DNA from: Acidobacteriota bacterium
GTDB lineage: Bacteria > Acidobacteriota > Vicinamibacteria > Marinacidobacterales > Marinacidobacteraceae
NCBI GenBank assembly: GCA_022822745.1
Contig: JAJEAO010000005.1
Coordinates: 17,831 to 81,830, forward strand
Length of the DNA stretch: 64,000 nucleotides
Reading direction: 5' to 3'
Shown here: in pieces, positions 5,184 to 63,033 of the stretch
Position numbering within the stretch: position 1 is the stretch's first letter
Layout: the number at the start of each line of letters is the position of its first letter
Made by a program: the position numbers and the translations under genes
The notes under the pieces: generated by a model
What the model saw: only the letters and a program-made list of their open reading frames with translations
Databases searched by the model: none
Told to the model about the DNA's origin: nothing

Positions 5184-6389
5184 ATGAAGGTCCAGGTGAA
5201 TCCCGAGCTCCTTGTGTGGGCCCGGCGCACGGCGGGACTGGGGGTCGAGGAGGCGGCTCACCTGCTCCGGTTCGAGGACACCCGACGCCGAACAGCGGCG
5301 GAGCGGCTGGCCAGTCTCGAACGAGGGGCCGAGGCGCCGTCCCTTTCGGTGCTCGATCGGATGGCGCATCGCTACCACCGGCCTGTCCTCGCGTTCTACC
5401 TCGAGCACGCTCCCGAAGAAGAGGAGAGCGCCGCGCGGCTTCGTTCCGCCCCCGGAGACCTGACTCGCCGGGAGGCCGGCTTGCTGGATGCCTTTGTCCG
5501 ACGAATGCGCGAGCGCCAGCGTCTGCTGCGTGAGGCGCTCGAGGACGGTGAAGAGGGTGAGGTCGTCCCGTGGGTGGGGTCGGCGGATGTCCGCGACGGC
5601 GCGACGGCGCTCGCGGCTCGCATCCGTCGCCTTCTCGATCTGAATCTCACCGAGTTCCGCTCCCGGCGCGATGCGAGAGCAGGGTTCGAGTGGCTCCGGG
5701 GGAAGGTCGAGACCACCAGAGCGGTTGTTCTGCTCGAAGGCGACCTGGGCTCCCACCAGACGGCGCTAGAGCTCCACGTATTCCGCGGCCTCTCGCTTGC
5801 CGATCCGGTGGCGCCATTCATCGTCATCAATCCGGGGGACGCGGACGCTGCCTGGTCGTTCACGCTGCTCCACGAGCTGACGCACCTCGTTCTGGGACAG
5901 AGCGAGTTCGCGAGTCTGACGAGCGACGACCGCATCGAACGTCTTTGCAACGACGTGGCTGGGGAGCTGCTCGTGCCAGCGCGGGACCTTCAGGGACTCG
6001 GGCCGATGCGCGCACGCGATCTGGATCAGCTCCGCGACAGCATCTCGGATCTGGCCCAAGCCTGGCGCGTCAGCCGTTCGATGGTCGCCTACCGCATGTT
6101 CCGCACCGGGCTCATTCACCGCGATGAATTCCTATCGCTCCTGAGCACCTTCGAGCGGCGCTGGCAGAAAGCCAAGGAAGCTCGAAGAGCCGCGAATCGT
6201 ACGCGCCCGAGTGGTCCGGATTTCTATGCGGTGCGGCGCTATCGCTTGGGAAAGGCGATGATCCGACGGACGAAACGGTTGTGGCGGAGCGGGTCGTTGT
6301 CCACGACAGAGGCCGGGCGGATCCTCGGTGTGCGTGGCGGCAGCGTTCACGCTCTACTGGATGTCGCGAGCGAGCGAGCACGACGTTGA
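5184..6389 (+). CDS. HTH (XRE-like) + ImmA/IrrE-family zinc metallopeptidase regulator
   Basis: ATG at 5184 lies inside the longer track ORF 4785..6389, whose upstream part overlaps the helicase 3-prime end and looks non-coding. HEXXH motif in LLHELTHLVLGQSEF; helix-turn-helix-like N-terminal segment. Confidence 0.75.
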   Translation: MKVQVNPELLVWARRTAGLGVEEAAHLLRFEDTRRRTAAERLASLERGAEAPSLSVLDRMAHRYHRPVLAFYLEHAPEEEESAARLRSAPGDLTRREAGLLDAFVRRMRERQRLLREALEDGEEGEVVPWVGSADVRDGATALAARIRRLLDLNLTEFRSRRDARAGFEWLRGKVETTRAVVLLEGDLGSHQTALELHVFRGLSLADPVAPFIVINPGDADAAWSFTLLHELTHLVLGQSEFASLTSDDRIERLCNDVAGELLVPARDLQGLGPMRARDLDQLRDSISDLAQAWRVSRSMVAYRMFRTGLIHRDEFLSLLSTFERRWQKAKEARRAANRTRPSGPDFYAVRRYRLGKAMIRRTKRLWRSGSLSTTEAGRILGVRGGSVHALLDVASERARR

Positions 6390-6593
6390 TCTATCTTCTG
6401 GACGAGAACTTCGGACTGGAGGAATCCGTGACGCATGAATGGGAAGGGCTCCGCGATGACAAAGCTGATTCTGCTGTGGCGCGTCAATCAGGGTGAGACG
6501 AGCGCGACAAACAGGATAGGACGGAGTCGGACGGTCGGCGGAGTCGTGAGCCGTCGTTGAGGGGGCTCGCGACAAGGACGACCGGACGGCGCT

Positions 6594-6614
6594 GAGCCCC
6601 GGCTCGCCGGGGCT
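6594..6614 (+). terminator. GC-rich hairpin (agccccggc-tcg-ccggggct) downstream of the ImmA/IrrE gene; possible intrinsic terminator without a U-tract
   Basis: Perfect 9-bp stem seen in the sequence; no T-run follows. Confidence 0.25.
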
Positions 6615-6632
6615 TCTCCGCCGGGGTCGGGG

Positions 6633-9600
6633 GTGTGTGGCGCGCCGGGATGGGCGTGTTGGCGGGAGGGTGAAGCCGGGTTGGAGGCGGGGCGCATACC
6701 ATCGCGCCATGTCGTGGCGGCGCGGGGGGAAGCGCAGGGCGCGGATCCGCGAGAGGGCGGCTCCGTGACGCAACTCGGTGTGCGTCCGGACTCGGGCCGC
6801 AGCCGGTCCGAGCCGGCGTCATCCACCCCCGGCGTTCTGGTCCAGGAGCTGGATCGCATCGCGCGGGAAACCGGGAGAGCCCGCAAGATCCTGATCGGTC
6901 GCACGCGTGGCGAGGGGAAGGAGCTGCTGCGGCAAGTGGCGCTGCGTGGCCGCTCGTGGACGGGGTTCGAGGTCGAGACGTTACGACCCTTCGCTTCCCG
7001 AATCGCTGCGCCCCGCCTCGCCCGGGATGGCCTCGCGGTGATGGATTCGGTCGACGAGCACGCTCTCGTCGAGCGCGCCCTGGACTGCGTGATCCCGCGC
7101 TTCCCCGACTTCTCGGAACTCGCGGAGAAGACCGGGTTCCGGGAGGCGGTGCGCCACTCGGTGGCGGCGCTGCGAAACGCCGGCGTCCGGCCGGACGCCG
7201 TGGAGCCCCGTGGCGGAGATTCGCAGGGGTTCGACAAGACCTCGCTGGTGACGCAGGTTCTGGCGGCGTACGAGTCTCTGATGCGGGAGGCGAACCGAAC
7301 GGACACGGCGGGGATCCTCCGGAGGGCGACCCGGAGTCTCGACGGCGGCGAGCGCCCTCGCTGGCTCGCGGATGCCCGGATCTTCCTGCTCCCCGGGCTT
7401 CCCGACCGGGGACTCGAGAGAGGCTTTCTGGCTGCACTGCAGGGCCTCGGGGCGGAAGTTCTCCGGACCGACGCTGTGGAGGGCCTGAATGTCCCGGATG
7501 GAGTCCTCTGGGAGGCGGCGCCGCCGGAATCCTGGGGCAGTTGGCTCCACGCCGTGGATCGGTGCGAGGCGGGCGCTCGGTCCGACCGCATCGAGCTGTT
7601 CCGCGCGGCTTCGGTTTCCGACGAGTTGCGAGGTGTGCTGCGAAGGGCGCTGGACATGGGAGCCCGCTGGGATCAGGTCGAGATCGTCGCCGCCGACCCC
7701 TGGTCGTACGGGTCGGCGCTCCACGCGGTGGCTGAGGCGAAGGAGATCCCGGTCAACTTCGCGGTCGGCCTGCCGGTCGAGCGAACCCGTCCCGGAAGGG
7801 TCGTCTCGACCTGGTTCCGCTGGATCGAGAGCGGTTTCCAGGAGTCGCTCTTCCGGGCGCTCGTCGAGGCCGGCGATGTGACGCCGCCGGGGAAGACGCG
7901 ATCCAGGGGGTTGTATGGCCCGTCTCTTGCCCGGGCGCTGCGGCGGCTCCGGATCGGGTGGGGCAGGGAACGAACGCTCGAGAGGATCGAGCAGGGGCTC
8001 GAGGGCGTCAGCGCGCTTCGGCCCAAGCCCACCGAGAGCGAGGCGAAGTTCGAGGAACGCAGGAAGTGGGAGCGCAGGAAGTGGGAGCGCAGGAAGTTGA
8101 TGGCGCTGCGGGACCTTCTCCGTCCCGTGCTCGAGGCGACGCCGGCGACCGACGGTCAGGCCTCGCCGTCCGAGGTTGCGAGCGGCGTGAAGAGTCTGCT
8201 GAAGCGAGCGACAAGCGGCACCGCCACCGACGGCATGGCGAGGCAGCGGCTCCTGGGTCAACTCGATCGCATCGAGGCCACGTTGACGCGTCCCACCGAC
8301 TTCGCTTCGGCCTGCGCGATCGTCCAGGCCCGCCTCCAGATCCGCATCCCGGCGCCGGGAACGAAGGGGCTGGCGCGGTGGAGCACTGCGCCCGGCGCCA
8401 TCTACCTGACGGATCGGCGGCATGGAGGCGCCACCGGCCGCCGCTTCACCTTCATCGTCGGTCTCCATGCGCGGTCCGTGGTCGGCTCGCTCCACGAAGA
8501 TCCGCTGCTCGGCGACGAGGAACGGCGTCGCATCGGCGAGGGTGAACTGCCGCTCGCGTCTGACCGGGCGGATGAGGCCCGCTTCGACTTCGCCCAGCTC
8601 TTCGCTCGATTGCGGGGCACGGTCGTCGTCAGCTACCCGTGCTGGGATCCCGTCCAGAGCAGGAAACTGGCGCCGGCTCCCGAAATGCTTCAGGCGCTTC
8701 GGCTTCGCGAGTGCGATGCGGCCCTCGGCTTCGAGAAGCTGGAGAAGGCAATCGGCGTGGCCGAGTCGCGTGCGCCGCGTCAAGAAATCACCGCCGACCT
8801 CGACCGCAGCGATGCGTGGCTACGCGCTCTCACGAGGGAGCCAGGCCGATTCCGCGACGGACTGGCTGCCGTTTCGCGATCGTTTCCCCAGCTTGGCGCG
8901 GGCCTCGCCGTCGCTCGGGCCCTCGAGCGCGACGAGCCGTCGGTGCATACCGGTTTTCTCGGTGTCCATTCTCCGCCTCTCCCCTACCAGGATGTCTCGG
9001 GCTGGAAGTTCTCGGCGAGCGGTCTCGAGACCCTGGGTACCTGTCCCCGACGCTTTCTCTTCAAGTACATCATCAAGGCGTATCCGCCCGACGACCCCGA
9101 GTTCGATCCCGGCCGGTGGCTGAATGCGCTAAAGAAGGGAGGACTGCTTCATCGGGTGTTCGAGAAGACACTCAAAAAGGCTCGGTGCCGCGGGATCGAA
9201 CCTCTCGACTCCCAGTTTGAGATTCTTGCTCAAAAGGTGCTGGCGCTCGAGGGTCAGAAGGAGCTCCGGAACACACCTTCCCCGAGCCAGGCGGTGCACC
9301 GCTGGCAGATGGAGGAACTCCAGGAGGACGCTCGCTCCTTCGTCGAGATGATTCGCAAGCGGGAGCCGCAGTGGCTGAAGCTCGAATGGCCGTTCGGGCG
9401 GGACACGGATCTGAAGATCCAGGCCGGGCGTCGGTCCGTTCTAGTGCGCGGTTCCGTGGACCGGGTTGACGACCATGGCAGTCACCTGCTCGTGGTGGAC
9501 TACAAGACCGGCAGCGATTACAAGTACCAAGGTGAAACCAAGACCCACGACGGTGGACGGCGCCTGCAGCACTTCCTGTACGCCCGCGTGGTGGCCGACG

Positions 9601-9932
9601 AAATGGATCCTGTGGACGCCATGGAGTACCACTTTCCCACCGTCAAGGGCGAGAATCGGATCCGGCGCTACGAGGCCTCGCAACTCCACACAGGTGGCGA
9701 CCTCGTCGAAACTCTCCTGGAGGGCGTGGAGGAGGGATCGTTTCCCGCCACGGATGCCCATGAGGACTGCAGGTTCTGCGACTACAAGGAGAGCTGCGGC
9801 GTTCAGACCGACAAGCGGGGTAATGCGGTTGGCGGCATCCCCGATTGGACGAAACGCAACAAGACATCCGTCGCCGCGCTGGAGCGGTTGCGGAACGTGC
9901 GCGACTGGGACAAGAAGAAGACAGCTTCGTGA
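6633..9932 (+). CDS. addB: AddB-like helicase-nuclease subunit (RecB-type PD-(D/E)xK nuclease with C-terminal Cys cluster)
   Basis: 1099 aa. Degenerate P-loop-like GRTRGEGKE near the N-terminus. C-terminus has VDRVDDHG...LLVVDYKTGSDYKY...EDCRFCDYKESCG. Exact start uncertain: GTG at 6633, or GTG near 6765. Confidence 0.7.
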   Translation: MCGAPGWACWREGEAGLEAGRIPSRHVVAARGEAQGADPREGGSVTQLGVRPDSGRSRSEPASSTPGVLVQELDRIARETGRARKILIGRTRGEGKELLRQVALRGRSWTGFEVETLRPFASRIAAPRLARDGLAVMDSVDEHALVERALDCVIPRFPDFSELAEKTGFREAVRHSVAALRNAGVRPDAVEPRGGDSQGFDKTSLVTQVLAAYESLMREANRTDTAGILRRATRSLDGGERPRWLADARIFLLPGLPDRGLERGFLAALQGLGAEVLRTDAVEGLNVPDGVLWEAAPPESWGSWLHAVDRCEAGARSDRIELFRAASVSDELRGVLRRALDMGARWDQVEIVAADPWSYGSALHAVAEAKEIPVNFAVGLPVERTRPGRVVSTWFRWIESGFQESLFRALVEAGDVTPPGKTRSRGLYGPSLARALRRLRIGWGRERTLERIEQGLEGVSALRPKPTESEAKFEERRKWERRKWERRKLMALRDLLRPVLEATPATDGQASPSEVASGVKSLLKRATSGTATDGMARQRLLGQLDRIEATLTRPTDFASACAIVQARLQIRIPAPGTKGLARWSTAPGAIYLTDRRHGGATGRRFTFIVGLHARSVVGSLHEDPLLGDEERRRIGEGELPLASDRADEARFDFAQLFARLRGTVVVSYPCWDPVQSRKLAPAPEMLQALRLRECDAALGFEKLEKAIGVAESRAPRQEITADLDRSDAWLRALTREPGRFRDGLAAVSRSFPQLGAGLAVARALERDEPSVHTGFLGVHSPPLPYQDVSGWKFSASGLETLGTCPRRFLFKYIIKAYPPDDPEFDPGRWLNALKKGGLLHRVFEKTLKKARCRGIEPLDSQFEILAQKVLALEGQKELRNTPSPSQAVHRWQMEELQEDARSFVEMIRKREPQWLKLEWPFGRDTDLKIQAGRRSVLVRGSVDRVDDHGSHLLVVDYKTGSDYKYQGETKTHDGGRRLQHFLYARVVADEMDPVDAMEYHFPTVKGENRIRRYEASQLHTGGDLVETLLEGVEEGSFPATDAHEDCRFCDYKESCGVQTDKRGNAVGGIPDWTKRNKTSVAALERLRNVRDWDKKKTAS
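8058..8102 (+). repeat. In-frame tandem 15-bp repeat (cgcaggaagtgggag, 2 full copies + 1 partial) encoding ERRKWERRKWERRKL inside the addB-like gene
   Basis: Direct tandem copies read from the sequence. Confidence 0.6.
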
Positions 9933-12900
9933 GCGACGAGCGATCCGGACTCCGGTCGGTGACTGAGCGGTCCGTCACGCCTCGACGCCCAACGGCCCGG
10001 TACAGCGAACCCGGTGAGTCTCGCACCGACGTAGTCCCGGATGGGGAGGCGCGACGGCGCATCCGCAAGAACCTGGAGCGCAACTTCCTCGTGGAGGCGG
10101 GGGCGGGCTCAGGCAAGACGAAGTCGCTGGTGGACCGCATGGTGGCTCTGGTGAGCAGCGGCGCCTGTCAGGTGGAGGACATCGCAGCGGTTACCTTCAC
10201 GCGCATGGCTGCAGCGGAACTCCGCCAGCGCTTCCAGGAGGAACTGGAGAAGAAAATCGAGTGCGCGCACAAGCGCTCCCAAGCGGATGATCGGAAGCGC
10301 CTCGAACGAGCGCTCCGGAACATCCACCAGGCGTTTCTCGGAACCATCCACGCCTTCTGCGCCAGGCTGCTGCGCGAGCGACTGGTGGAGGCAGGGCTGG
10401 CTCCGGATTTCCGGGAACTGGAGGAGACCGAAGCGGAGCGCTCGAAGCAGGTGTTCTGGAACGACTTCCTGGAGAAGCTGGCGGTGAATGAGGATCCCGT
10501 TCTGCTCAAGCTCAAGCGCTTGGGGATCCGCCCCAGCACGCTTCAGGGAGCCTTCGGCAGCTTGGTCGAGAATCCGGACGTGGATTTCGTCGCCGAGAGG
10601 GTCGAGCGGCCGGATCCGGATGATGTCGCGGCGCTACGGGCCGAATTCGATGCTCTCCTCTACCGGGCAGAGGTGATGATGGAGGGCCTGCAGCCCAAGG
10701 AAGGGTGGAAGTCCCTTGGACAGGGATTCCGCACGGCGCTGTATTGGCACCGGTCGCCGAACTGGAAGGATCCGGCGGTCTTCTTTGAGGTCGTTGCCAA
10801 GTTTCACAGGATCAGAGAGAAGGAGACTGGGAAAATCCTGACGCTGAAACGGTGGGCCCGCACTCGCTCCGGCCAAAAAGAGGCGAAGAAGCTGGCCGAG
10901 GATTCCCAGGCCTTCGGGTGTAAGGCGGACAAACTGCTACGACAGTGGTGGGCTTACCGATATCCGGTGGCGGTGGATCTGGCCGGCAGGGCGGCGGAAG
11001 AGTACGCGTACGAGCGGAAGGCTCGGGGCGAGGTCACGTTCGACGATTTGCTCGTTTTCTCCACCGAGCTGCTTCGCAAGAACGACGAGGCGCGCCGCGA
11101 TCTGGGGCGCCGCTACCCGCGGATCCTCGTGGACGAGTTCCAGGACACCGATCCGCTGCAGGCCGAGATCCTGCTTCTCCTGTCCAGCGACCCCGAGTCG
11201 GGTGACGACTGGAGGAGAGTCACTCCCCGGCCCGGTTCGCTCTTCGTCGTCGGTGATCCCAAGCAGAGCATCTACCGATTCCGCCGCGCCGACATCTCGC
11301 TCTACGAGATGGTGAAGCGCCGCTTCAAGAAGTTCGGCGAGGTCCTGCGCCTCGAAGCGAACTTCCGCTCGCTGCCGGACTTCGAGAAACTGGTGGAGGG
11401 CGTCTTCAACGATGGGCAGCACTTCCCGAGCGCGAGTTCAGACCGCCAGGCCTCGTTTGCGCCGCTGCGGGCCCAGATGCAAGGGCGCGGTCTGCTGGCC
11501 GCCTACCGGGTTCAGGGCGCGAACCAGGACGATGTCGCCGAGGACGATGCCGCCCGCATCGCCTCTGAGATTTCGCGGCGGGTTCGATCGGGAGAGCGTC
11601 GGCCCGGCGCGTTCATGATCCTGACCGGGCGACGCAAGTTCCTGTCGGTTTATGTTCGAGCGCTCGAGAGGCGCAACCTCCCGGTCGAGGTGTCGGGCGC
11701 GGGCGTGGGTTTCGAGGACGAGTCGCGGGCGTTTCTGACGCTCTTCCGGTGTCTGGCGGACCCCCAGCACGAAGTGCACGTTCTTTCGGTGTTGACTGGG
11801 CCCTTCTTTGGCATGACCCTCGACCGCATCGTGCGGTACAGGGACAGCGGTGGCTCGCTTGTCGCCGATTGCCGGCCGGAGGGCGACTGCGAGGTCGCAG
11901 AGGCGATCGGGAGTCTCCACCGGTGGTGGTGTCTTGCGCGCCGCGAGCCCGCGGACATCACGGCCGAGAGGCTCGTGGAGAAGATCGGCCTCTTCCCCCT
12001 CGCGGCGGCGGCGCCCTTGGGAGGGATGCGTGCCGGGACTCTGGCGTACCTGCTGGACGCCGTGCGGGACCGGGCGCGAGCGGGCGATTCCTCGCTCGCG
12101 GGCGCCGTGGACGCCATGGAGACAGCGCTCGAAAACAAGGAAGCCGAACCGTCGTTGATCCCGACGCAGCCCGATTGCGTGCGCGTCCTGAATCTGCACC
12201 GCGCCAAGGGTCTCGAAGCTGACGTGGTCTTCCTGGCCGCGCCGTTTGGCGCCTCCGATCCCGATCCGCGGATGCACGTGTCGCGCCGTGAAAAGGGCAG
12301 CCCCGAAGGCCATCTGGCCGTCGGACTCAAGGTCCGATTTTCGTGGGAGACCATCGCGCAGCCCCTCGACTGGGAGGAGAAGAAGCGCAAGGAGGTGGAG
12401 TTCGCGAAGGCGGAACAGATCCGGCTGCTCTATGTCGCGGCGACGCGCGCAAGGCACGAACTCTGGATCGCGTGCCGCCCCGCCGAGATGTCCTGGCAGT
12501 CGAGGCCGTCACCGTGGGCGGATGTGGAGGAATGGGTGGTGGAGAGGGCCGGCAAGGACCGAGAGGCGGACTCGTCGTGCCACTGCGTTGTCCTGGACGA
12601 ACTGCCGAAGGACTGCGTGCCCAAGCCGGCCCGCCTGGAACCCGGGGAGGGTCTCACCGGGAGGATCAGGGCTGCCAAGGCGGGGGTGCGTCGGAGCCGC
12701 AAGGCGACCTACGCCGTGGAGAAGGTCACGGACCTGGCGAAACAGAACCGGCCGGAGGGAGAGGTCAACGTCTCCACGGAGCCGAGGGAGGCCGATACGG
12801 ACGACAAGGCTCACGCGCCGCTCGATCCCGGAACCAGGGGACGCGAATGGGGCACCGTAGTGCACGAGGTGCTTGCCGAGGCGGGCGAGGGGGTCGAAAG

Positions 12901-54756: not shown

Positions 54757-55971
54757 ATGAGGATCGAGAGCATCGAGCTCCGCAACTACCGGGTCTTTCG
54801 TCGGGCGCGGCTCGATCACCTGCCCCGGATGGCGGTCGTCGTCGGGGCCAACGGCTCGGGAAAGAGCACGCTGTTCGATGCCTTCAGCTTCCTGAAGGAT
54901 GCCCTCCAGGACAACGCCCGGGTGGCGGTCGCCCGGCGGGGAGGGTTCCGGGAACTCGTGAGTCGGGGCGAAAGGGGCCCGATCGCCGTGATTCTCAAGT
55001 TTCGGGAGAGCGGAGGTCGGCTGGCCACCTACTCGCTCGAGGTCGGCGAGGCGGGCGGGAGAGTCGTCGTCGAGCGCGAGATCCTGCGCTACCGGCGCGG
55101 CCAGAAGGGCAAGCCGTGGCACTTCGTGGACTTCCGTCGAGGGGAGGGGACCGCCATCACGAACGAGGCTCTCTATGGGCAGACGGGTGTGGAAGAGGAG
55201 CGTGAGGAGTTCTCCCTGGAAGACCCGAGCATCCTCGCGATCAAGGGCCTCGGCCAGTTCCGCAGTTTCCCCGTCGTCGCCGAGTTTCGGAACCTGATCG
55301 AGAACTGGCACATTTCCGACTTCCGGATCGCCGATGCTCGGGTGAGTTCCGAGGCGGGATTCGCGAATCATCTGTCGGCGCGAGGCGACAACGTGGCGCT
55401 TGTAGCCCAGCATCTCCACGAATCGCACCCGGACCGATTCGAGGCGGTCCTTCGAGCGATGCGGCTGCGGGTTCCCGGAGTGCGGGATGTCGAAGTCCGA
55501 TCCACCGAGGATGGCCGGATGGTGCTGCGGTTCCGCGACGGGGAGTTCAAGGACCCGTTCATCGCCCGATACGTCTCCGACGGGACGATCAAGATGTTCG
55601 CGTACCTGGTTCTGCTCCACGATCCCAAGCCGCATCCCTGCCTGGCGGTGGAGGAGCCGGAGAACCACCTGTATCCGGTGTTGCTCCGCGAGCTTTGCGA
55701 GGAGTTCCGCGACTACGCCGGCGGCGGAGGACAGGTGTTCGTGTCAACCCACTCGCCCGAATTCCTGAACGCGGTGGAGCTCGACGAGATCTACTGGATG
55801 GGAAGACGCGGTGGGTTTTCGATGGTGCGTAGAGCCTCCGAAGACGAGATCCTCCGGAACCTGATCGAGGCGGGCGATGTTCCGGGCGACCTCTGGCGAC
55901 GGGGCTGCTTCGACGATGTCCGTGCCTGGCAGGGCGCATCGCCGGTCGTTCCATGGGCCGAGGTGACGTGA
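54757..55971 (+). CDS. AAA_21/OLD-family-like ATPase (SMC/RecF-type ABC ATPase fold), no partner gene
   Basis: Walker A VVVGANGSGKSTLFDAF; D-loop/Walker B LAVEEPENHLYP; H-loop STHSPEFL. Stop overlaps the ldcA ATG (TGATG). Confidence 0.7.
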   Translation: MRIESIELRNYRVFRRARLDHLPRMAVVVGANGSGKSTLFDAFSFLKDALQDNARVAVARRGGFRELVSRGERGPIAVILKFRESGGRLATYSLEVGEAGGRVVVEREILRYRRGQKGKPWHFVDFRRGEGTAITNEALYGQTGVEEEREEFSLEDPSILAIKGLGQFRSFPVVAEFRNLIENWHISDFRIADARVSSEAGFANHLSARGDNVALVAQHLHESHPDRFEAVLRAMRLRVPGVRDVEVRSTEDGRMVLRFRDGEFKDPFIARYVSDGTIKMFAYLVLLHDPKPHPCLAVEEPENHLYPVLLRELCEEFRDYAGGGGQVFVSTHSPEFLNAVELDEIYWMGRRGGFSMVRRASEDEILRNLIEAGDVPGDLWRRGCFDDVRAWQGASPVVPWAEVT

Positions 55972-57020: not shown

Positions 57021-58757
57021 TTGGGCCGAGCGCTTACGATCCCTGCTTCTCGCTCCGAATCCCCCCAGCCGATCGTGACCAGCCCGCAAGGTTCCAATTC
57101 GGCTTCGTCAGGCGACGCCGTGACGGAGGCGGTGCTCGCGGTCCGCGATGGCCTTGAGCGAGAGATCTACCAGCGCAGGTCCGACGTTGCCAGCGCGGTG
57201 GGCCGGCTCCTTACGGCGCTTGGATGGGATGTCTTCGATCCGAGGCAGGTGAGTCGCAACTACCCGACCGGCAACCAGCGGCTCGATTTCGCACTCTTCC
57301 CTACCGCGGATCGGCCCCTCGTGGTCATCGACACCAGGAAGGGCACCGGTCCGCGAGTTGGCGGCGCCACGATCCTGCTCGAGTTCTGTCGCGGCCAGGA
57401 CATTCCGCTTGCTGTGCTCACGAATGCCCGCAGGTGGCTCCTCTACTCCGCGAGTGGCAGCGCCGGGAATGGTGACGGCTGCTTCCTCCAGCTCGATCTT
57501 CTCGACGAGGCACCGCCGGATGTCGCTCAGCACTTGACACGCCATCTCGCACGGAGTCAAGTGGAGTCTGGCCGCGCACAGGCCGCGGCCGAGGCAGCCC
57601 TGGAAGAGATCCGCGGGCAGAGCCGAGCTGCCCGCTCCTTCGAGCCGGTCCTCAGGACGATGGTGGAGGGGCCGGACGACTCTCTAGTCGATCTGTTCTG
57701 TGCGCGCGTGGAAGAGACGAGCGGAGCTCGGCCCGCTCGCGACGCTGCGTCCGTGTTCCTCGCGCGGACACTCGACGTCACAACCTCGTCCTCAAGGTCG
57801 CAAACAGAGACACGCTCTGCGAAGTCCGCTCCGCCGTCATCAGACGGATCGCGAAGTCCGGAGCTGACCATGTTCGGCCGGACGTCTCATCCGTCATCCG
57901 GTAAGGACCTTCTGGTCGATGTGTTCGCCGAGCTGGCGCGGCGCGACGAGGGCTTCTGTCACCGGTTTGCGTCGGCGCACCGGGGTCGGACCCGGCGTTA
58001 CTTGGCGCGCGCCCGAGCTCGGCTCTACCCGGGGAATCCCGAGTTCGCCAGGAAGTTTGCAGAAGAGCTACCGGGCGGCTGGTGGATCGCAACCCAGAAC
58101 AGTAATCGAGGAAAGCGCCAACTCATTCAGAAGGCGTGCGCGGTGGCGGGCGTCGGATTCGGAACCGACGTCATCGTTCGGCTCCCGACGATTCGGCGAA
58201 GCGCGGGGAGCAGAAGTAGTCGGGGATCGAAGGTCGCGACACCGCCGGCGTCTGGAGGAGGAGGCGTCGCCCCCAAGTCTCCGCAGCCTGGTCAGATCAG
58301 ACCGACGGGGACCGGCCGTTTCGTGCTCACTCTCGAAGGAAGTGTCCGACGATTCCCGAGCGGAGTGGCAGCCCTGGTGGCCGCGTTCGAGTGGTTCGCA
58401 TCCCGGGATGCCGGATTCCTGGAGCGGTTCGCCCGTGAAGTCCGAGGGACTTCCGTCCACTACGTGGCGCGCGATCGAATGCGGATGTACCTGAGCCGAC
58501 CGAAGGCAGGGCCGAAGAACTCGGCGGCCCTGTCCCGTGGCTGGTGGATCGCCACGCAGAACAGCAGTGCCCAGAAGAAGAGTCTGATCCGACGCGCCTG
58601 CGAACTGGCGGGCCTGAAGTGGGGACAGGACGTTCTCGTGGATTTCCCGGCCCATCACCGCTATCGCAAGAAAAAGGGCCCTACCGCCAAGCACTCCTCC
58701 AACGAATCCGCCGAGGCGATTCTCGAGGCTCTCCGTTCGCGCCGCAGCGTCCGCTGA
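57021..58757 (+). CDS. HsdR_N-like PD-(D/E)xK nuclease-fold protein with a tandemly duplicated C-terminal domain of unknown function
   Basis: N-terminal block RLDFALF...LVVIDTRKG...LAVLTNARRWLLY matches the type I HsdR N-terminal / Mrr-like PD-(D/E)xK pattern. Two ~105-aa repeats share F.RFA...Y.AR.R.YL...GWWIATQNS..K..LI..AC..AG. Start uncertain (TTG 57021, or GTG 57072 / 57117). GC3 clearly lower than in native genes. Confidence 0.6.
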   Translation: MGRALTIPASRSESPQPIVTSPQGSNSASSGDAVTEAVLAVRDGLEREIYQRRSDVASAVGRLLTALGWDVFDPRQVSRNYPTGNQRLDFALFPTADRPLVVIDTRKGTGPRVGGATILLEFCRGQDIPLAVLTNARRWLLYSASGSAGNGDGCFLQLDLLDEAPPDVAQHLTRHLARSQVESGRAQAAAEAALEEIRGQSRAARSFEPVLRTMVEGPDDSLVDLFCARVEETSGARPARDAASVFLARTLDVTTSSSRSQTETRSAKSAPPSSDGSRSPELTMFGRTSHPSSGKDLLVDVFAELARRDEGFCHRFASAHRGRTRRYLARARARLYPGNPEFARKFAEELPGGWWIATQNSNRGKRQLIQKACAVAGVGFGTDVIVRLPTIRRSAGSRSSRGSKVATPPASGGGGVAPKSPQPGQIRPTGTGRFVLTLEGSVRRFPSGVAALVAAFEWFASRDAGFLERFAREVRGTSVHYVARDRMRMYLSRPKAGPKNSAALSRGWWIATQNSSAQKKSLIRRACELAGLKWGQDVLVDFPAHHRYRKKKGPTAKHSSNESAEAILEALRSRRSVR

Positions 58758-61283: not shown

Positions 61284-61565
61284 TCAGGGCCGAGATGGTG
61301 TTCGGGGGCGGGCCCGGCTCGAGTCGTAGGAGGCCTGCCGTCGGAGCCAGAAGGCCGTGTTGGACCACCCGGCCCTCTCCAGACGCGCCGCCACATCCGG
61401 TGAAATGGCGGCGTGGCCACCCAGGATCCGCGAGAGTGCGTCGCGGGCGACGCCGAGCATCTGCGCCGCTTCGTCCACGCTGAGACCCATGGCGTCCATG
61501 CAGTTCTCGCGGATACTCCGACCGGGGTGGGGTGGGTGGCGCATGGTGATGGCCGGTTGCCTCAC
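61284..61565 (-). CDS. HigA-family HTH antitoxin
   Basis: MRHPPHPGRSIRENCMDAMGLSVDEAAQMLGVARDALSRILGG...FWL matches the HigA (antidote) family. First ATG gives an ATGA overlap with the upstream ORF; an alternative ATG lies 21 nt downstream. Confidence 0.7.
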   Translation of the reverse strand: MRQPAITMRHPPHPGRSIRENCMDAMGLSVDEAAQMLGVARDALSRILGGHAAISPDVAARLERAGWSNTAFWLRRQASYDSSRARPRTPSRP

Positions 61566-61810
61566 TTCTTCCAGACCTTGGCCACATCGGGCTTCACGGT
61601 GACGTATGCCGCCAGCTTGCGTCCGTCGGCGATCTGAGCCGAAGCGTTCGGAGGACCAGCCAGTGCGGCGATGCGAGCAGCGTTCGTGCCTGCTTCCATG
61701 ATGTCCCGATCGAAGAGCGTTCCGTACAACTGCTCGTGCGCCGTCTTGTGGCCGGCCGGTGCGGAGCGTCGCATCGTTTGGAACTTGGTGACGAGGTCTG
61801 ATTCGGTCAT
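61562..61810 (-). CDS. hypothetical 82-aa protein, candidate toxin partner of the HigA-like gene
   Basis: Position and 4-nt overlap only. The sequence does not resemble canonical HigB/RelE. Confidence 0.35.
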   Translation of the reverse strand: MTESDLVTKFQTMRRSAPAGHKTAHEQLYGTLFDRDIMEAGTNAARIAALAGPPNASAQIADGRKLAAYVTVKPDVAKVWKK

Positions 61811-62171: not shown

Positions 62172-62675
62172 TCAGCTCGGGTCCGGGTCGTGCAGCGTGT
62201 GGAGGAAGCGCTCGAACCGCTGCAGGTCGCGCAGGACGAGAGGGTGGACCTGATGGAGCTTGGCGATCAGGAAGTCCATGCGATCCCAGTCGTACTCCAT
62301 CTCGAAGTAGTAGCGCTTGAAGTGCCGGAAACGCAGCAGTTCCAGGAGCAGCGGCAGCGCCTCGTCCGACACCGCCGCCACGCGGACGCCCTCGATCTCG
62401 AGGTTCATTCGCTCGAGAAGATCGCGATGCCAACGCTCAGGCCGAAGCCGGTTCTCGAAGTGCTGCGAGATGCGCACGAAGGCAGTTTCCAGGCAGGTGT
62501 AGTAGTTCTCCAGGAGGCTTGCGGCAATCAGGGCCGAGACCGGTGTCCTTCCGAGGCGCGGAATCTCGTCGGCGAGGGCGCTCTCGAGCGCGTCGCGGAC
62601 CTGGTCGAGCCGTCGCCGGTGGAGCCGGACCTGGGCGAGCAGCTCAGCCGTCGCCGCGTTCATGGACCAGCGCAC
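62172..62675 (-). CDS. HEPN-like nucleotidyltransferase substrate-binding protein (HI0074-like)
   Basis: 167 aa, all-helical. Putative R-x(4-6)-H in ELLRFRHFKRYY. Overlaps the upstream MNT gene by 32 nt. Confidence 0.6.
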   Translation of the reverse strand: MRWSMNAATAELLAQVRLHRRRLDQVRDALESALADEIPRLGRTPVSALIAASLLENYYTCLETAFVRISQHFENRLRPERWHRDLLERMNLEIEGVRVAAVSDEALPLLLELLRFRHFKRYYFEMEYDWDRMDFLIAKLHQVHPLVLRDLQRFERFLHTLHDPDPS

Positions 62676-63033
62676 CTCGGGTGCGGATCTGTTCGGCGAT
62701 TTCCTTCGGCACCTTCTCCATCTCGATCACGTCCACCGGGAGGGTCGTGCCGTCCATCGCGATCCCGAGCACGCGGAAGAACTCGGCGGGGCCAGAGAGT
62801 CCCTCGACGGCGAGATCGATATCCGAGATCTCGCTGAAACGCGACCGATCGAGGAGCGATCCCCACTGGTAGATGCGGCGCGGGTTCACCTCCTCGACGA
62901 TCGCTGCGATGATCTCTTTCGCATCCCGGTTCGCCCGCTCGAAACGGGCCTCGATCCGGGCTTGGCGCCGTTCCTCCTTGCGTGCGAGGAAGGCTCGCGC
63001 CTGATCGAGATCAATGCCGAACTCGCTGTTCAC
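62644..63033 (-). CDS. minimal nucleotidyltransferase (MNT, Pol-beta superfamily)
   Basis: GS...D.D motif in YQWGSLLDRSRFSEISDIDLAVEG. Confidence 0.75.
   Translation of the reverse strand: MNSEFGIDLDQARAFLARKEERRQARIEARFERANRDAKEIIAAIVEEVNPRRIYQWGSLLDRSRFSEISDIDLAVEGLSGPAEFFRVLGIAMDGTTLPVDVIEMEKVPKEIAEQIRTRGALVHERGDG

Follow-up and report, generated by a model that had tools for sequence, protein, structure and literature searches.

What a protein that opens like a restriction nuclease might do with two copies of one further domain is the question raised by a single gene at 57120..58757 (+) of a 64,000-nucleotide (nt) stretch of Acidobacteriota DNA (contig JAJEAO010000005.1; the whole stretch is called the window below). 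The gene encodes P0001, annotated as 545 residues (aa) from a GTG start at 57120 and the same on two independent assemblies; the surrounding open reading frame (ORF), 57021..58757 (+), has a TTG start and 578 aa, and the starts of homologues at the equivalent position support GTG. In order, P0001 comprises an HsdR_N-like domain, a helical spacer, two domains (R1 and R2) akin to SeqA's C-terminal domain (SeqA-C-like) and a C-terminal helix (residues of repeats and motifs are given in the 545-aa numbering). We find that the repeat is almost certainly genuine and of the SeqA-C fold, that the nuclease motifs of P0001 have degenerated and that duplications of the same domain recur among its relatives. 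As a whole, we lean slightly beyond an even balance towards the explanation that P0001 is a two-domain, nuclease-dead, bivalent binder of marked DNA.

A tandem repeat of the SeqA-C fold

The initial annotation, made from the letters alone, had proposed an internal tandem duplication of a ~105-aa domain with the signature GWWIATQNS, and the duplication is borne out: the segments that it had delimited in R1 and R2 align over 101 residues without a gap, at 46% identity and 58% positives (BLASTP E=2e-27), and GWWIATQNS is present twice (nt 58077-58103 and 58539-58565). The two repeats reach a Smith-Waterman score of 221, against 28.5 +/- 5.3 (maximum 69) for 2000 shuffles of one repeat (z=36.6), which excludes the compositional, low-complexity similarity that had been named as the possible artefact. 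Only the length of the unit had to be revised, as it opens with a beta-hairpin ~12 residues upstream of the start first proposed. R1 spans aa 247-360 (nt 57858-58199, +; PF03925 E=4.5e-4 and AlphaFold2 (AF2) model) and R2 aa 397-518 (nt 58308-58673, +), exactly two copies, and a family hidden Markov model (HMM) scan of the 64-kb window found no further family member beyond P0001. Between the two lies a Ser/Gly/Pro-rich, disordered linker of ~36-40 aa (nt 58200..58307, +; AF2 predicted local distance difference test (pLDDT) <50 for aa 358-395), and the protein ends with a short helix (aa 529-542, 58704..58745, +; AF2 model) behind a basic disordered tail, the C-terminal tail resembling that of the relative P0132 (...AMKRRSRVR in P0132 versus ...EALRSRRSVR). 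The full-length AF2 model (pLDDT 79.7, predicted template modelling score (pTM) 0.40) consists of an alpha/beta domain (1-130), a helical part (132-216), a disordered stretch (220-244), R1 (248-357), the linker (358-395), R2 (401-511) and the final helix (529-542), with R1 and R2 both modelled at high confidence. At the nucleotide level R1 and R2 are 53% identical, falling to 39% at third codon positions, and the duplication is therefore old. Gene conversion was considered as a source of the identical GWWIATQNS and is not claimed: the two 27-nt stretches differ at 3 sites, all synonymous, identity falls off immediately in the flanks, and Trp codons together with GC-biased codon use make the identity unremarkable.

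The initial annotation had not recognised the repeated domain, yet its fold is a known one, and three independent kinds of evidence agree on homology to SeqA-C. The Pfam model of the SeqA C-terminal domain (PF03925) matches the whole of P0001 in 2 stretches with 35.6 bits (E=1.1e-8; gathering threshold 25.5), and a three-dimensional fold test likewise identifies SeqA-C. Compared with the PDB, a domain profile of 128 sequences matched all five SeqA sequence groups (E=0.003-0.01), the other matches being three NDUFB10 groups (E>=0.15) in which no stretch passed the threshold alone; such a profile was required, as a single-sequence phmmer search against the PDB placed SeqA marginally (E=0.54) and below spurious linker matches. 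RAMA (PF18755), another predicted N6-methyladenine (m6A, 6mA) reader, matched neither repeat even at E<=10, SeqA alone being found, and PADLOC has no model for P0001. The NCBIfam SeqA equivalog NF008389 is the best match, with 27.8 bits against a cutoff of 185, and P0001 falls outside that equivalog. The SeqA N-terminal oligomerisation domain (residues 1-35 in E. coli) is not in P0001, whose N-terminus consists of the HsdR_N-like domain and the helical spacer.

Contact loops of the two copies

The C-domain of SeqA binds hemimethylated GATC, recognising N6-methyladenine (PMC2691817), and according to the account in PMC6225831, which cites Fujikawa et al. 2004, residues R116, T117, R118, N150 and N152 touch GATC. 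We read the corresponding positions from E. coli SeqA aligned to 291 family domains. The first contact loop in the family is G-R-(K/T)-R, with Arg at the R118 equivalent in 249 of the 291 domains, and the second is W-W-x-x-T-(N/H)-x-S, with mostly Ser at the N152 equivalent; the GWWIATQNS signature is this second SeqA contact loop. R1 (GRTR, nt 57984-58001, and TQNS) retains the Arg-Thr-Arg of SeqA and has Gln and Ser at the N150 and N152 positions. R2 (the divergent GTSV, nt 58446-58463, and TQNS) has T, S, V, Q and S at the five contact positions, none of which is the SeqA residue, and both arginines are gone. The Gln at the N150 position that R1 and R2 have in common occurs in 6 of the 291 family domains.

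The fold and the contact loops point to a reader that approaches a short site, one probably containing methyl-adenine, through the major groove, and homology to the SeqA C-terminal domain (PMC2691817) makes plausible, by analogy, the earlier proposal that the repeated unit reads modified DNA; that methyl-adenine itself is the recognised mark we put a little short of even. With Arg-Thr-Arg kept in R1 and both arginines gone from R2, the role of specific reader probably falls to R1, and R2 would be auxiliary or of different specificity.

Degenerate motifs in the nuclease domain

P0001 begins with an alpha/beta domain of the HsdR_N-type PD-(D/E)xK fold (aa 1-130, 57120..57509, +; AF2 pLDDT mostly >90), followed by an all-helical spacer that is conserved in the family (aa 131-216, 57510..57767, +; AF2 helices 132-216 and family N-terminal HMM). 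The family N-terminal HMM matches P0001 at E=4e-57, and Foldseek with the N-domain model retrieved the DrdV nuclease domain, V. vulnificus HsdR (3h1t), BpuSI and EcoR124I with a probability of 0.8-1.0. These structural matches, together with the matches of the homologues P0002-P0009 to Pfam HSDR_N (PF04313), uphold the HsdR_N-like N-terminus that had been read from the sequence; P0001 itself gives no match to PF04313.

What the initial annotation missed is the degeneration of the nuclease motifs, which family alignments place at RLDFAL, IDTRK, ILLEF and LTNA (57279..57428, +). From the catalytic D...(D/E)-x-K, P0001 keeps D56, and the family E-x-K is replaced by D71-T72-R73; the RecB-like QxxxY, which is QLF(E/Q)Y in the family, is replaced by ILLEF (I85...F89), and the family LTDG is LTNA. 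Nearly all family members, with one or with two SeqA-C-like domains, retain D...E-x-K, QLF(E/Q)Y and LTDG, and of ten two-copy proteins aligned, only P0001 departs from the six nearly invariant residues of the N-domain (E, K, Q, Y, D and G), and it does so at every one of them. This accelerated divergence is limited to the nuclease domain, in which P0001 is 28-45% identical to P0132, P0131, P0002 and P0145 and those four are 51-66% identical to one another; the corresponding ranges are 37-47% and 34-40% in the helical spacer, and 45-53% and 43-61% in R1. An acceleration confined in this way argues for a protein in which catalysis was lost and the reading function kept, and not for general decay. 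Judging from these sequence changes, we think it quite likely that the P0001 nuclease no longer cleaves DNA.

It is, by the same evidence, unlikely that P0001 is still a working modification-dependent endonuclease whose doubled domain merely tunes the site requirement. The acidic D56 and D71 are kept and a lysine (K74) stands right after R73, a well-folded N-domain is predicted, independent assemblies agree on the same unbroken ORF, and the motifs are intact in the closest two-copy relatives, P0131 and P0132. Against this, E, K, Q, Y, D and G have all changed together in the one domain that is accelerated, the Q179A/Y183A double mutant of EcoR124I, from work on the roles of the QxxxY and PD-(D/E)xK motifs, shows no cleavage (PMC2475608), and K74, if on a beta-strand, would point away from D71.

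A widespread family with recurrent domain duplication

A domain-profile search of 1.84 billion representatives gave 1445 clusters at E<=1e-3, or 795 with the stricter limit of E<=1e-10, and 39 loci were found in species-representative genomes of Proteobacteria, Acidobacteriota, Bacteroidota, Gemmatimonadota, Planctomycetota, Nitrospirota, Chloroflexota, Verrucomicrobiota, Myxococcota and one archaeon. At nearly all 39 the product is ~360-400 aa long and combines the same N-terminal domain and spacer with a single SeqA-C-like domain; searching the species-representative genomes with P0001 alone returned no relative, and none was found in viral contigs by a scan limited by its search patterns. 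A further protein search that started from the aligned two-copy proteins retrieved 3 proteins and brought nothing new. The JGI label of some members is 'predicted type IV restriction endonuclease', that of a few others is 'negative regulator of replication initiation', and a survey of PD-(D/E)xK proteins put COG2810 with HSDR_N (PMC3424549). The SeqA-C-like domain also occurs fused to HNH, Mrr_N and AlbA_2, which is the usual behaviour of a modification-reader module, and SeqA-domain fusions in restriction-modification contexts have been noted previously (PMC4738411). We consider it reasonably probable that the family consists of modification-dependent (type IV-like) nucleases, among which P0001 would be a divergent member: the combination of a nuclease with a predicted reader of modified DNA is seen at the family level, and the nuclease motifs of P0001 itself are degenerate. 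The two-copy architecture is already in public databases and, as far as we found, is not described in the literature searched.

In the copy-number survey, which took in the best 150 of the 1445 representatives, most homologues have one copy of the domain, at least 18 proteins of ~440-660 aa have two full copies and one has five. The five copies of the latter, P0130 (874 aa, on an 11.9-kb metagenome contig), lie in tandem, and the first two are 100% identical, which indicates a very recent repeat expansion. R1 and R2 of one and the same protein share between 26% and 100% identity. In a neighbour-joining (NJ) tree the own-repeat pairs of P0135, P0137, P0138 and P0143 are united at 99-100% bootstrap, and these four proteins therefore acquired their duplications independently. 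R1 and R2 of P0001 appear as sisters in 0% of replicates; R2 forms a 92% clade with R2 of P0132 and the single domain of P0008, and the duplication in P0001 therefore predates the split from P0132. By these sequence comparisons, duplication of the SeqA-C-like domain is recurrent in the family, and the duplication in P0001 is neither recent nor unique, being common to P0132 and matched by comparable, independent ones in many relatives.

Paralogues also accumulate as separate genes. Locus L006 holds four tandem family paralogues at 6845-11921, the first with a degenerate nuclease motif (..VEIES..), the second and third intact with one SeqA-C-like domain each and with overlapping stop and start codons, and the fourth, of 546 aa, in which aa 417-546 match the SeqA-C-like domain in full and aa 196-241 only over a short part. 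At L049 the two-domain P0147, whose nuclease motif is degenerate (ELR), and an intact 432-aa single-domain paralogue on the opposite strand lie 1.4 kb apart (6001-7542 and 8957-10255) with a PIN/RHH pair between them, and at L050 (5912-8304) the degenerate-nuclease P0167 adjoins a Fic protein and an N6_N4 DNA methyltransferase on the opposite strand. Two of the three other degenerate-motif members checked thus stand beside intact paralogues. Repeated independent duplications and tandem gene arrays together suggest that multivalent binding of the kind seen in the SeqA dimer has been selected for.

The divergent loop of R2 is common to P0132, which has an intact nuclease, and to P0008, and is therefore older than the nuclease changes in P0001. 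This order of events bears on whether P0001 is a decaying remnant, an inactivated restriction gene on its way to a pseudogene in which R2 and the degenerate motifs have no current function. Such a fate would account for the lost catalytic motifs and the lost contact arginines of R2, and the syntenic relative P0008 has lost its nuclease domain and R1 entirely. The 545-codon frame is nevertheless uninterrupted, the spacer and R1 are as conserved against homologues as the homologues are among themselves while the nuclease domain alone is accelerated, the R2 loop predates the nuclease changes, and both repeats model with high confidence; we regard decay as improbable.

One marked site or two

In the explanation that we favour, a single domain would bind one site weakly, and two tethered domains would grip two nearby marked sites tightly, the flexible linker of ~36-40 residues giving tolerance of variable site spacing. 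SeqA requires two sites for stable binding and carries its two C-domains on flexible linkers, which set the spacing tolerance (PMC2691817), and for 6mA-dependent winged-helix fusion nucleases a tandem pair of modified sites improves cutting (PMC11037411). In the light of these precedents two-site avidity is favoured over recognition of both strands of one symmetric site, and by analogy we give it an even chance of being correct.

The initial annotation had suggested a two-fold symmetric or bipartite target, such as modified bases on both strands; the bipartite, two-site form fits better, and the both-strands form is disfavoured by the SeqA precedent, the linker and the unequal copies. Two copies could in principle sit on one two-fold-symmetric, fully modified site, one per strand, so that duplication would confer specificity for both-strand modification. 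There are indeed two copies with an identical recognition-loop sequence (GWWIATQNS), and fully methylated GATC is the preferred substrate of DpnI-type enzymes and of most winged-helix 6mA-dependent ones (PMC11037411). Each SeqA C-domain takes a whole GATC site, however, and the two domains of the dimer bind two separate sites (PMC2691817); two such domains on one 4-bp site would be sterically unlikely, a disordered linker of this length suits spaced sites, R2 lacks both contact-loop arginines, so that the copies are not symmetric readers, and the existence of a five-copy family member is not explicable by two-fold symmetry. This arrangement is accordingly hard to credit, and two separate sites remain our preferred target.

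Genomic context and a possible partner

In five related genomes, represented by the window (= L001), L003, L004, L047 and L048, an LD-carboxypeptidase gene immediately precedes this one. Upstream ABC transporter, MacB/FtsX and AttH genes are conserved at four of the five loci (all except the short contig L047), and housekeeping genes further downstream are common to the window and L048 as well. What differs among the five is the resident protein and the cargo downstream of it: L003 encodes P0002, with one SeqA-C-like domain and an intact nuclease, upstream of DUF6088; L048 encodes P0131, with two domains, an intact nuclease and no downstream cargo; L047 encodes P0132, with two domains and an intact nuclease, followed by HigBA-like and PIN/RHH genes; L004 encodes P0008, with one domain, the nuclease domain absent and AlbA_2 added, followed by a small ORF and then Ion_trans + AlbA_2; and in the window P0001, with two domains and a degenerate nuclease, is followed by GmrSD, HigBA-like and HepT/MNT genes. 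At L004 (8001-9266), P0008 has kept an R2-type domain and gained a C-terminal AlbA_2 (Schlafen-type) domain in addition to its losses of the nuclease domain and R1, and the second AlbA_2 protein downstream is fused to an ion-channel domain.

The GmrSD-family gene behind P0001 (58776..61238, +; 820 aa, DUF262 + DUF1524, PADLOC Orf5/HEC-06-like) is a possible operon partner. It starts 18 nt past the P0001 stop with a GAGGAG Shine-Dalgarno sequence in front, and a promoter/terminator scan, otherwise uninformative, found no terminator-like site between the two genes. The only syntenic protein with a presumably dead nuclease is thus the only one then followed by another nuclease, a single case that is suggestive. 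The GmrSD protein has a ~260-aa C-terminal extension weakly like DUF4268 (E=0.0034, below cutoff).

Several neighbours are of defence or toxin-antitoxin type. An AAA_21 ATPase gene at 54757-55971 (+) has a match (E=1e-164) to HEC-01B, which PADLOC lists as a candidate defence component, with NCBIfam MADS3 below cutoff; its DUF4276 partner lies between the ATPase and LD-carboxypeptidase genes in L003 and is missing in the window and L004. On the minus strand, an HTH_3/Xre-like gene with a small partner (61284-61810) is likely a toxin-antitoxin pair, HigBA-like by analogy with L047, and overlapping HepT-like_2 and Polbeta (MNT) genes (62172-63033) are likely another. No methyltransferase is among the neighbours at L001, and a crude motif search saw no DPPY-type methyltransferase motif with an S-adenosylmethionine (SAM) motif in the window. 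GATC occurs 645 times against 636 expected from a Markov model; it is neither avoided nor enriched and is uninformative on host methylation. In the window, whose overall GC is about 65-77%, GATC and TCGA are both very frequent yet match the Markov expectation, CTAG is strongly under-represented (7 observed against 40 expected in a second-order model), and TTAA is absent.

This context also bears on a housekeeping role, in which P0001 would act on host hemimethylated DNA as a SeqA-like chromosome organiser, a replication-sequestration factor or a MutH-like strand-discrimination factor. In its favour are the same slot after the LD-carboxypeptidase gene in five related genomes, the fold of SeqA, whose known role is housekeeping (PMC2691817), and the abundance of GATC, which is not avoided. 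On the other side, the family is patchy over more than 10 phyla and an archaeon, the SeqA-C-like domain is fused to restriction-type nucleases (HsdR_N and HNH) and to Mrr_N, the gene stands among defence and toxin-antitoxin genes, the SeqA oligomerisation domain is absent and the crude motif search of the window saw no methyltransferase of the DPPY type with a SAM motif. Close relatives moreover vary between one and two domains and between intact, degenerate and absent nucleases, which is typical of conflict systems. We hold a housekeeping role to be very unlikely.

Weighing the favoured explanation

We therefore return to the view that P0001 binds or senses marked DNA, probably of foreign origin, in a bivalent manner and with a nuclease that is most likely inactive, possibly cooperating with the GmrSD enzyme encoded downstream; the explanation allows for binding only as well as for binding with signalling. 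Several points weigh against it. Taken singly, the repeats score 20.7 and 21.8 bits with PF03925 (E about 2-4e-4), under the gathering threshold, and their sequence identity to SeqA is 9-19% only. With Ser at the N152 equivalent and Gln at the N150 equivalent, the target may not be GATC, or the mark not m6A, and the loss of the R2 arginines could mean that R2 has no specific DNA binding, which would weaken the two-site model. The inter-domain geometry of the AF2 model is undefined, as its pTM indicates. Residual cleavage is possible with K74 directly after R73, the Lys-to-Arg and QxxxY changes being inactivating by prediction. GmrSD is present in none of the four syntenic relatives, so that its link with P0001 rests on one locus, and the stable gene position in five related genomes would suit housekeeping as well. 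In the literature searched we found no experimental or biochemical work on any family member.

A more specific version would make P0001 a dead bivalent sensor of methyl-adenine-marked DNA, possibly hemimethylated, once-replicated foreign DNA, that serves as a targeting subunit for GmrSD, and would make the SeqA-like family one of hemimethylation-reading restriction enzymes that hit Dam-type-methylated invaders after the first replication in a methylase-free host. We mention it as a speculation with little chance of being right in all its parts.

Relation to known systems

P0001 differs from SeqA (PDB 1LRR, 1IU3, 3FMT, 3SK7; PF03925) in that it has no N-terminal oligomerisation domain, bivalency instead arising by tandem duplication in one chain, and in that its domain is fused to a restriction-type nuclease domain and carries an extra N-terminal beta-hairpin; it has Ser at N152 and Gln at N150, and R2 is without both arginines. 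McrBC requires two modified sites for productive engagement. The likeness of P0001 to it lies in this two-site concept, whereas McrBC is a GTP-driven AAA+ translocase with separate subunits and P0001 would be a passive tether in one chain. MutH is a PD-(D/E)xK nuclease that acts at hemimethylated GATC. Unlike the proposed arrangement in P0001, it reads the site with the nuclease domain itself and serves in repair, where it is coupled to Dam, MutS and MutL; apart from the generic nuclease fold the two match neither in sequence nor in fold.

The single-domain HsdR_N + SeqA-like proteins have the same order of N-domain, spacer and reader and are clear homologues (E down to 2e-76); they are typically ~360-400 aa long with D..ExK..QxxxY intact, whereas P0001 has two domains and degenerate motifs. 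These relatives are comparable to COG2810 (PMC3424549), by which no identity with COG2810 is implied. DpnI and the winged-helix-fusion 6mA-dependent type IV/IIM endonucleases (HhiV4I, FcyTI) resemble the family in combining a nuclease with a separate methyl-adenine sensor domain (PMC11037411), although that sensor is a winged helix and not SeqA-C; their activity has been demonstrated biochemically, and most of them favour fully methylated GATC.

Implications for the family

SeqA-C, the classic reader of hemimethylated GATC, has been reused as a module on restriction-type nucleases in at least 1445 clusters and many phyla. For P0001, the apparently dead nuclease, the two non-equivalent readers and the adjacent GmrSD gene suggest a route from a restriction enzyme to a pure sensor. 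The repeated independent doubling, to between two and five copies or as tandem genes, amounts to a natural experiment, from which valence emerges as important in the reading of sparse DNA marks. If the specificity that we infer is true, the family would join the winged-helix enzymes as a second, structurally distinct class of restriction enzymes that depend on adenine methylation, and it might tell hemimethylated from fully methylated DNA and so provide a reagent for mapping replication or methylation state.

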